Source of the DNA: Escherichia coli
Lineage (GTDB): Bacteria > Pseudomonadota > Gammaproteobacteria > Enterobacterales > Enterobacteriaceae
Assembly: GCF_009931435.1 (NCBI RefSeq)
Contig: NZ_CP043414.1
DNA: 64,000 bases
Reading direction: 5' to 3' (one strand)
The position numbers are program-made. Shown piece after piece: positions 50,001 to 53,000 of this stretch. Numbering within the stretch: the stretch's first letter is position 1; each line of letters begins with the position of its first letter.

Positions 50001-53000
50001 AGCCGATAGGCGTAAAAGTGACCCTGAAAGATGAGAATGGCAACGGGGTTACCGGAAGAAAAGAACTTCTTAAACAGGCTGTTAAAGTAGACAACACGAA
50101 GACCGATGCTGTTAGTGCCTGGACGGAAGAAAGTGAGGGAGTTTACAAAGCAAACTATACGGCCCATCTCATTGGCGACAAATTAACGGCCCAGCTGACG
50201 ATGCCCGGCTGGCAAACCAAGCATTCGGATGCATTCAGTATTGCGGGTGATAAAGATACCGCCAAAATCGCAGCGATGCAGATCACCGCGAATAACGCAG
50301 TCGCCAGACGCGATCACAATACCGTCGCTGTGACGGTCAGGGACGTGCATCAAAATTTACTGCAGGGACAAAATGTTACCTTCACGGTCGTGAATGGTGC
50401 GGCGGTTTTTGCCGATCCAAATGGCGGTATTGTGACGACAGATAAAGACGGGATTGCCAGCGTTAACCTTGCCAGTGACCAGGCGGTAAACAGTCTTATC
50501 AAGGCCGAGATCAATGGCAGTAGTCAGTCTGTGGAAGTGAGCTTTATTACTGGCGATATCTCGCAGCTGACCTCCACCATCAAGACGGACGATGTGTCAT
50601 ACACCGCGGGTGGCAAGATAAAAGTGTCAGTTACCCTTATGGATGAGCAGAAAAACCTGGTGAAAGGGATGGCTTCGCTGCTGGTGGGTAGCGGTGTGGT
50701 CGAGGTGAGCGGTACAGATAAAAATGAAACGGGTAACTGGAGCGAAGAGTCTGATGGCGTTTACACCACCACCCGAACCGCGAAGATTGCTGGCAATAGC
50801 CATTACGCCACGCTGAAACTATCGACATGGAGTAGCGCGCAGCAATCCGATGCGTATGTCATCCGCGAAAGCGGAGCTGTGCTGGCTTATTCCTCTATCG
50901 TTACCGACAAAACGACCTATACCGCAGGCGGTGCGATTAAAGTTACGGTAACGCTCAAGGATAGCTATGAAAACCTGGTCGGGGGGCAACGAGACGCTAT
51001 CAGCCAGGCTATCCAGCTGCCAAATACAAAAGCGGAAAGCATTACCTGGAATGAAGATCAAAAAGGCATTTATACCGCAACGTATACCGCTTTACTTCCT
51101 GGCACCGGTTTAAAAGCACAGCTACAGATGTCCGGCTGGGCGAGCGCCCTGACTTCAAATGTTTACAGTATTAGTGGCGATGCCGCCAGCGCACAAATTG
51201 TCTCGATGCAAGTGACAACGGGTAACCCGGATGTGCTGGCGAATGGTAGCGATCAACATACGGTGAATGTTCGGGTGGAAGATCAGTTTGGCAATGTGCT
51301 GCCGGAGCAGACTGTCACCTTTACGGTGACGAAAGGGGCGGCTGTATTTGCCAATGCAAGGCAGAGCGCAGATATCAGGACGGATGCGCATGGCATGGCA
51401 GAGGTTGATCTGAGCAGTACCGTAGCGGATGCCAGCACTGTTGAGGCTAAGGTCAATCAAAGCAGCGATAGTAAAACGGTGAACTTTGTTGCTGATGTTA
51501 GTACGGCGCGTATTGCTGATCTGGGGGTAACGCAGGATAACGCGGTGGCAGACGGCGCGACAGAGAACATGCTGTGGGTGAAAGTCACCGACGCGTTCGG
51601 TAATGCGCTGGGCGGGCAGACGGTCAGCGTGTTGGCGGACAACGGCGCAACGGTCGCTCCGACGGTGATTACAGAGCCGGACGGCACGGTGGAGATCAGT
51701 GTCACCAGCCAGACGGCGGGCACCAGTGCCGTCACTGCAACCATCAACAGCAGCAGCCAGAGCCGGGATGTGACGTTTATCGCCGATGTCAGGACGATGA
51801 AGATAGCGGATCTGGTCGTTAGCCAGGATAACGCGGTGGCAGACGGCGCGACGGCGAACACGCTGCAGGTGAAGGTGACCGATGCGTTCGGGAATGCGCT
51901 GGGCGGACAGACGGTCAGCGTGACGGCAGGCAACGGCGCAACGGTTGCTCCGACGGTGATTACAGAGCCGGACGGCACGGTGGAGATCAGTGTCACCAGT
52001 CAGACGGCGGGAGCCAGTACTGTCACTGTCAGCATCAACAGCAGTACCGCGAGCCGGAACGTCACGTTTATCGCCGATGTCAGCACGGCGCAGATCGCGA
52101 GTCTGGAGGTGACGCAGGATAACTCAGTGGCTGACGGCGCAATGGCGAACACGCTGCGGGTGAAGGTCACCGATGCTAACGGGAATGTACTTGCCGGGCA
52201 GACGGTCAGCGTGACGGCAGGCAATGGCGCAACGGTCGCTCCGACTGTCATCACAGGGCAGGACGGCACGGTGGAGATCAGTGTCACCAGCCAGACGGCG
52301 GGCACCAGTACAGTCACCGCCAGCATCAACAGCAGCAGCCTGAGCCGGACCGTGACGTTTATCGCCGATGTCAGGACGGCGCAGATAGCGGATCTGGTAG
52401 TCACCCGGGATAACTCAGTGGCAGACGGTGCACGGCGAATACGCTGCGGGTGAAGGTCACCGATGCGTTCGGGAATGCACTTGCCGGGCAGACGGTCAGC
52501 GTGTTGGCAGGCAACGGCGCAACGACTGCTCCGACGGTCACCACGCAGCCGGATGGCACGTTGGAGATCAGTGTCACCAGCCAGACCGCCGGAACCAGTG
52601 TGATCACCGCCAGCGTCAACAACAGCAGCCAGAGCCGGAACGTGACGTTTATTGCGGATGTCAGGACGGCGCAGATCGCGAGTCTGGAGGTGACGCAGGA
52701 TAACGCCGTGGCTGACGGCGCAATGGCGAACACGCTGCGGGCGAGGGTGACCGATGCGTTCGGTAATACGCTTGCCGGACAGGCGGTCAGCGTGTTGGCG
52801 GATAACGGCGCAACGGTCGCTCCGACTGTCATCACAGGGCAGGACGGCACGGTGGAAATCAGTGTCACCAGCCAGACGGCGGGCAGCAGTGCGGTCACCG
52901 CCAGTATCAACAGCAGCAGTCAGAGCCGGGACGTGACGTTTATCGCGGATGTCAGGACGGCGAAGATCGCTGATCTGGTGGTCACCCGGGATAACTCAGT

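Follow-up and report, generated by a model that had tools for sequence, protein, structure and literature searches.

The frameshift that splits iatC in one Escherichia coli assembly coincides with the edge of a patch apparently copied between tandem repeats

Within the tandem-repeat array of a large adhesin gene of Escherichia coli, one base appears to be absent and the reading frame is broken. Is this frameshift a genuine lesion of the gene, a means of regulating the adhesin, or a product of sequence assembly? The question was addressed within the window, i.e. the whole 64,000-nucleotide stretch of DNA analysed here, in which position 1 is the start of dnaA and coincides with the first position of complete genomes rotated to dnaA. 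The host is ordinary E. coli, with 99.4% identity across dnaA-gyrB. Membership of a divergent Escherichia clade (identity to E. coli does not exceed 98% in the nepI-adeD flank) was considered and rejected on the basis of the dnaA-gyrB identity.

The split gene is iatC, which encodes a characterised E. coli adhesin of the type Ve inverse-autotransporter class. The 5' ORF scored 2615.5 bits against the NCBIfam equivalog domain NF040978 (Ve_IatC_Nterm; cutoff 2400), with a match over residues 1-1065 of the 1065-position model. Pfam searches of the same ORF placed the IAT_beta domain (PF11924, E=9e-109) at residues 149-423, with Invasin_D3 and Big_1 domains C-terminal of the barrel. Near the end of the 3' ORF, Pfam detected Invasin_D4 (PF21764, E=2.6e-12), and the last 200 residues resembled residues 295-481 of Yersinia invasin 1CWV, i.e. 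the D4-D5 binding tip (E=1.8e-21); this invasin-like tip is encoded in the 3' ORF only. The locus order nepI-iatC-eilA, which borders the eip type III island, is the usual one in E. coli. The gene, annotated as iatC between nepI and eilA, is present in approximately 750 of 5426 complete E. coli genomes, and intact natural IatC alleles range from 2740 to 4481 aa, the difference residing mainly in the repeat array. Some records call the gene at the nepI-eilA locus air/EaeX. EilA has been reported as a modulator of eip-island genes, eaeX included (PMC4210603). IatC was named by Goh et al. (2019, mSphere), who found it to be surface located and its expression in K-12 to promote biofilm, and who described a LysM domain, Big_1 repeats and a C-type-lectin cap (PMC6714894).

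Instead of a single continuous ORF, the window carries iatC in two pieces of 1470 and 1755 codons, and the split claimed in the original prediction agrees with the ORF list (Table 1). Read directly, positions 52415-52455 of the window are ...GCAGACGGTGCACGGCGAATACGCTGCGGGTGAAGG..., and one base is absent after 52432, at the point where the sequence switches from the type of a donor repeat to that of the recipient repeat, as detailed below. In silico insertion of one base after 52432 yielded a single 3225-aa ORF; apart from that base, the disrupted gene is collinear with, and gap-free against, intact 9678-bp iatC alleles. The 5' ORF closes with six out-of-frame residues (RRIRCG) and a TGA at 52451-52453, so that the stop codon is reached 21 nt past the frameshift. 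In the 3' ORF, a signal sequence, a beta-barrel and a Shine-Dalgarno sequence before its GTG were looked for and none was found. As sequenced, the locus is a disrupted allele of the IatC family and not a functional member of it. Pseudogenisation, a term offered in the original prediction, is too strong for an allele whose 5' ORF retains the signal sequence, the beta-barrel and approximately ten Ig-like domains.

Table 1. Coordinates of the features of the iatC locus within the window.
Feature	Coordinates	Strand	Description
nepI	46654..47838	+	Upstream neighbour; exact matches to its protein led to the sister assemblies
iatC (inverse autotransporter adhesin IatC), disrupted	48041..57717	+	9677 bp; intact allele 9678 bp (3225 aa)
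5' ORF, 1470 codons	48041..52453	+	Signal region, weak LysM, IAT beta-barrel, Invasin_D3/Big_1, first 3.1 tandem units
Tandem array, 14 units x 291 bp	51518..55590	+	97 aa each, Big_1-type Ig-like domain; pairwise identity 77-100%
Recipient copy of 399-bp repeat	52034..52432	+	Left 154 bp (52034-52187) already identical between both units in sisters
Minimal copied patch, 245 bp	52188..52432	+	35 differences vs sisters, 0 vs window 53351-53595
Unit 4	52391..52680	+	Sole 290-bp unit
Frameshift junction	52432..52433	+	Window GGTGCA/CGGCGA (slash, junction); sister genomes GGTTCGACGGCGA; donor repeat GGTGCAATGGCGA
3' ORF, 1755 codons	52450..57717	+	Remaining 10.8 tandem Ig-like units, more Ig-like domains, Invasin_D4, invasin D4-D5-like tip
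Donor copy of 399-bp repeat (unit 7 into unit 8)	53197..53595	+	Same as in sister genomes
eilA (HilA-family regulator)	57769..59466	-	Downstream neighbour of iatC

The repeat structure confirms the length defect. Tandem Repeats Finder reported one array at 51518-55560 (period 291, 13.9 copies, 88% matches), and a script located 14 copies of the motif GCAGACGG..GGCGAA between 51548 and 55330. Neighbouring copies are exactly 291 bp apart, with the single exception of those at 52421 and 52711 (290 bp); the copy at 52421 measures 25 nt where the other 13 measure 26 nt. A 1-bp defect had been claimed, and unit 4 is indeed 290 bp long against 291 bp in 13 of the 14 units; sequence specific to unit 4 lies at approximately 52540-52620 (e.g. 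ACCACGCAGCCGGATGGCACGTTGGAG). The accompanying statement that every other copy reads gcagacggtgcaatggcgaatacgctg was correct as to length, all 13 exceeding the copy at 52421 by one base, but wrong as to sequence. Only the copy at 53584 contains GCAGACGGTGCAATGGCGAAT, continuing ATGCT; the remaining copies are variable (GCGATGGCG, GCAATGGCG); in the first two, which read GCGAC(A/G)G(A/C)G, a Thr codon (ACG/ACA) takes the place of ATG.

Sister assemblies were recovered by means of the exact NepI protein of the window. Four were obtained, independent of one another and belonging to the same clone: L017 (GCA_021109565.1), L019 (an ENA metagenome assembly), L020 and L021. Between L017 and the window no mismatch occurs over 36654-52187 (15.5 kb) or, after a 1-bp shift, over 52433-57838 (5405 bp). 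The other three follow the same pattern, with 0-2 stray SNPs upstream of the patch that separates these two stretches and 0-1 from 52433 on. All four sisters have in common the same 35 mismatches to the window, every one of them confined to 52188-52432, and all read GGTTCGACGGCG, in frame, at the frameshift site. The L017 protein is intact at 3225 aa and differs from the 'restored' window protein by 12 residues, all within 1383-1464, which are the 12 amino-acid changes encoded by the patch.

These mismatches have a source within the array itself. The window contains a perfect 399-bp direct repeat (Table 1; offset 1163 bp), and the perfect match ends exactly at the missing base. In a three-way alignment the window is sister-type up to 52187, donor-type (unit 7/8) over 52188-52432, and sister-type again from 52433. 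The patch is 100% identical to its paralogous donor at 53351-53595, and the donor is unaltered. The perfect block shared by the two units measures 154 bp in the sisters versus 399 bp in the window; the left junction lies somewhere in this 154-bp block, because both units are already identical there in the sisters. At the right joint a precise chimera would give GGTGCAACGGCG and the window has GGTGCACGGCG, the lost base being the A of an AA dinucleotide. The right junction is thus short by 1 bp and situated between mismatches, in diverged sequence with 1 nt of shared identity between the flanking mismatches, while the left one falls within the 154-bp identity. Chi sites were sought at the junctions and are absent from both, the nearest being at 50680. 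Three exact 31-mers are diagnostic at the site: CAGACGGTGCACGGCGAATACGCTGCGGGTG, which spans the window junction, CAGACGGTGCAACGGCGAATACGCTGCGGGT and GCGGACGGTTCGACGGCGAATACGCTGCGGG. The original prediction of a 1-bp deletion accordingly holds in that one base is missing, but not as an isolated lesion, the gap being the right-hand junction of a copied patch of 245-399 bp that carries 35 differences from the sisters.

The direction of the change can be read from the distribution of the two patch types. Within its own array the sister patch is unique, the best paralogous unit being 88% identical; beyond this clone, it matches a different iatC allele (L014) at 100% identity and RMDEC465 at 97.6%. 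Since the sister patch is unique and shared with other alleles, and the window patch equals a paralogue in its own array, the sisters represent the ancestral state and the window the derived one. The ancestral sequence is thus present in close relatives and is not derivable from the array. The opposite polarity, with the sister state derived, was rejected on the uniqueness of the sister patch in the array and its sharing with other alleles. The donor is unchanged, therefore the transfer was one-way. The frameshift, as read in the sequence of this assembly, appears to be the junction scar of a one-way repeat-to-repeat copy. In favour of a real event, iatC arrays are clearly mosaic between strains, with approximately 85% identity in 'orthologous' units versus more than 99% in the non-repeat parts, and the sibling complete genomes MFDS1019527 and MFDS1022581 likewise differ by a paralogue-identical array patch.

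The same allele was sought in other collections. The exact 1470-aa product of the 5' ORF had no match in a 153-billion-gene index, and the 41-nt deletion allele had none among GTDB representative genomes. The junction with an optional extra base was absent from the GTDB representative genomes and from JGI metagenomes. BLAST of the site against 5426 complete RefSeq E. coli genomes gave a best identity of 95%, with none above, and BLAST of the sister allele against the same set gave a best identity of 94%; on account of these best matches, the lineage is missing from the complete-genome set. Taken at the level of the assembled sequence, the event is private to this assembly.

On the preferred reading, in which confidence is evenly balanced, the patch would record an intragenic gene conversion that is real and very recent, or a double template switch during replication, with an imprecise return junction on microhomology. 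A nascent strand or recombination intermediate would start in the 154-bp identical block, and unit 7/8, 1163 bp downstream, would then be copied one way over unit 3/4 for 245-399 bp. The return to unit 4 would take place in diverged sequence by pairing on a single A, which would misalign the joint by one base, so that a base would be lost. Translation would continue through six out-of-frame codons to the TGA at 52451. Consistent with copying in the cell rather than by the assembler, 42 of the 42 upstream genes are full length and without a frameshift, and the other 13 units, including perfect repeats of 240 and 244 bp, are base-identical to the independent L017 contig. A generally error-prone assembly was considered and rejected, with all 42 flanking genes intact and 0 mismatches to the sisters outside the patch. 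The 5.4 kb downstream of the patch show 0 differences and no decay, which counts against a real event; this absence of decay is equally compatible with an artefact and with a very recent event.

The same private and undecayed state leads to a serious, if less probable, alternative in which the isolate carries the intact sister allele and the assembly or its consensus is chimeric. Reads from unit 7/8 would have been placed on unit 3/4, the misplacement being seeded by the 154-bp identical block, and the consensus would have followed them for approximately 245 bp, switched back, and dropped a base. Such an origin would account for a patch and a missing base that are private to one assembly when the gene is intact in at least four independent assemblies from the same clone, for the lack of any other instance in the gene index, the GTDB representatives, the JGI metagenomes or the complete E. 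coli genomes, and for the absent downstream decay. The missing base is exactly at the patch edge, i.e. at the expected consensus switch-point. Homologous recombination normally loses no base at a junction, whereas consensus switching between mis-placed and correct reads can. The array is furthermore difficult to assemble in relatives, where short-read contigs break inside it and one scaffold has an N-gap there, and misassembly is a recognised hazard for repeat-rich genes of the inverse autotransporter class (PMC6714894).

Several properties of the assembly speak against a chimera of this kind. The rest of the array, with its perfect repeats of 240 and 244 bp and its units of 99% identity, matches an independent contig base for base, and the 42 flanking genes are without a frameshift. 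The placement of position 1 at the dnaA start suggests a modern long-read or hybrid pipeline, in which reads would span the 4-kb array. To the right of the junction, exact sequence common to donor and recipient does not extend beyond 29 bp, a length at which a de Bruijn graph with k of at least 77 would offer no path between them. Short reads with approximately 14% mismatches would escape mis-mapping, and polishing with mis-mapped short reads would hardly yield 35 coordinated substitutions within 245 bp, where identity to the true copy is 86%.

The nature of the lost base raises an intermediate case, namely that the conversion is real and in frame (GGTGCAACGGCG) and the missing A is a base-calling or polishing error, which would leave the adhesin intact with 12 paralogue-type substitutions. 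Single-base deletions are the commonest residual error in long-read consensus, a precise chimera is expected to hold AA exactly where one A is missing, and another complete genome lacks one base of iatC that is present in its sibling, also a private deletion. The coincidence required makes this case unlikely: an independent error would have to fall exactly on the junction, approximately 1 in 4000 for the array or 1 in 9677 for the gene. In addition, a 2-nt run is no error-prone homopolymer, and no further indel is present in approximately 21 kb compared with the sisters or in the 42 genes.

Phase-like inactivation had also been proposed, and the sequence around the junction does not support it. 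Regulated expression across the frameshift could take the form of slipped-strand phase variation, of programmed -1 frameshifting, or of coupled re-initiation at a GTG overlapping the TGA (GTGA), and the overlap of the 5' ORF stop with the GTG that opens the 3' ORF is compatible with the last of these. However, homopolymers within 40 bp do not exceed 3 nt and a simple-sequence tract is absent, and a search for an X XXY YYZ heptamer from 52370 to the stop (52452) found none. The 20 nt before the GTG (GCACGGCGAATACGCTGCGG) are without a Shine-Dalgarno sequence, and the GGGTGAAGG motif that forms the GTGA overlap corresponds to RVK codons found in most units. A re-initiated product would be without signal peptide and barrel, and all relatives have one continuous ORF. 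Regulation by any of these routes is extremely improbable.

A different form of reversibility is suggested by the 399-bp repeats. Deletion between them in silico removed 1163 bp, the lesion included, and produced an intact 8514-bp ORF of 2837 aa with 10 repeats, a length inside the natural range of IatC. On this basis it may be speculated that such a 1163-bp deletion provides a route of reversal. The broader proposition that, given a real lesion, iatC arrays might go OFF by imprecise repeat-to-repeat copying and ON by repeat deletion, i.e. recombinational phase and length variation of an inverse autotransporter without a simple-sequence tract, is very unlikely.

If gene conversion or template switching did occur in the cell, the outcome would be a protein truncated in its stalk. 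Because the 3' ORF has neither a signal sequence nor a ribosome-binding site, the cell would lose the distal part of the stalk together with the invasin D4-D5-like binding tip. The 1470-aa product (approximately 156 kDa), comprising the barrel and a short stalk of approximately ten Ig-like domains without the tip, could still be exported, as is generally known of truncated intimin and invasin constructs, and a truncated surface protein without a tip is plausible. In this isolate an EilA-linked adhesin would then have been deprived, very recently, of its binding tip, with an exportable barrel and stalk retained, and repeat homogenisation in inverse autotransporters could be mutagenic and, in principle, reversible.

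The gene iatC itself was already known; what is added here is that its frameshift is a junction scar private to one assembly, with all clonal relatives intact. For annotation, the locus is best called one disrupted iatC rather than two genes, and, since the gene is intact in every clonal relative, its status needs to be marked as unverified. As to method, near-identical sister assemblies exposed an indel as the edge of a paralogous patch, a signature worth seeking wherever a frameshift is found in a tandem array.

Among known systems, the closest is the IatC of E. coli SMS-3-5 (EcSMS35_4024; PMC6714894), with which the window gene shares the NF040978 domain above cutoff, the position between nepI and eilA, and the architecture of LysM, IAT beta-barrel, Big_1 repeats and lectin-like tip. 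The SMS-3-5 protein has 2934 aa, whereas the window copy is frameshifted and would have 3225 aa if restored. Goh et al. (2019) reported no frameshifted iatC alleles and found repeat number to be invariant in their own set (PMC6714894). The on/off frameshift in a surface adhesin gene recalls the slipped-strand phase variation of contingency loci, but the site is without a homopolymer or short-unit tract, and reversal would need recombination between the 399-bp repeats. The defect also resembles those of misassembled or frameshifted repeat-rich adhesin genes in finished genomes in being private, located in a long tandem array and missing from clonal relatives; it differs from misassembly in its clean 245-bp paralogous patch and an otherwise perfect array, with no collapse, expansion or scattered indels. 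Intragenic conversion and homogenisation are known for the repeat arrays of Ig-like and autotransporter adhesins, and in E. coli both RecA-dependent and RecA-independent template-switch recombination take place between nearby repeats. The window shares with intragenic gene conversion a one-way transfer, an unaltered donor, a patch of a few hundred base pairs, one end in perfect identity, and a longer perfect repeat as the result. In contrast to classical conversion tracts, which are precise, its right junction is imprecise (-1 bp) and lies in diverged sequence.

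Splitting of iatC, the inverse autotransporter adhesin gene, was also observed in a second genome. In the complete genome of E. coli MFDS1019527 (NZ_CP169309.1; locus L024) iatC is annotated as two CDSs of 8718 and 969 bp, because of a private 1-bp deletion (GGCAATGGGC to GGCAAGGGC) at approximately locus position 9195 relative to the sibling strain MFDS1022581 (NZ_CP169399.1; locus L025), in which the gene is intact at 9678 bp. The deletion lies in the non-repetitive 3' part of the gene, and the downstream sequence is the same in both siblings. The MFDS1019527 locus furthermore carries, within the iatC repeat array, a patch of 5 SNPs versus its sibling (locus 6040-6072), which has the same sequence as two further units of its own iatC (at 5163 and 5454), the exact match spanning 6004-6089. 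This patch retains the reading frame and is either conversion-like or polishing-like.

The repeat array itself defeats some assemblies, as shown by locus L013 (GCA_000190995.1, GL872206.1), the iatC locus of another assembly, where a run of 1662 N bases (locus 14282-15943) breaks the gene within the array and iatC is called as pieces of 843 and 1325 aa. At the 5' end of the window iatC, 51 differences were found in the first ~870 bp versus the alleles of 2013C-4282 and of two further assemblies (L011 and L012), and fewer than 10 were found versus the same alleles in the next 2.3 kb. The region encoding the signal and LysM portions is a distinct mosaic block.

The first base of the window is the first base of the dnaA start codon, and in alignment this base falls on position 1 of several complete genomes that have been rotated to dnaA; the window therefore represents the initial 64 kb of a complete chromosome rotated in this way. 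Among the complete RefSeq E. coli genomes in the collection no member of its lineage was found, the best identity being 98.0% over 40-48 kb. Chi sites (GCTGGTGG) numbered 12 in the whole window versus ~2 expected from shuffles, and 10 of them are on the + strand; one lies within iatC; this count and orientation are normal for E. coli near the origin.

Window features discussed in the text
Feature	Position	Strand	Length
Region starting with dnaA	1-1404		
ilvN-uhpA interval	33400-36750		
iatC 5' end	48041-48900	+	
Chi site within iatC	50680		
IpaD/SipD-family needle-tip gene	59669-61018	-	449 aa

Between ilvN and uhpA, two ORFs share just 49% and 53% protein identity with their positional counterparts in strain N96, which are annotated as 'hypothetical proteins', and the flanking genes are all 97-100% identical to those of that strain. 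The interval is a variable islet. Several relatives share the needle-tip gene length of the window, while the gene encodes 484 aa in strain 2017-02-2CC and is annotated as frameshifted in RMDEC465. The eip/ETT2 genes are known to undergo mutational attrition, and the observed needle-tip variation is consistent with this pattern.
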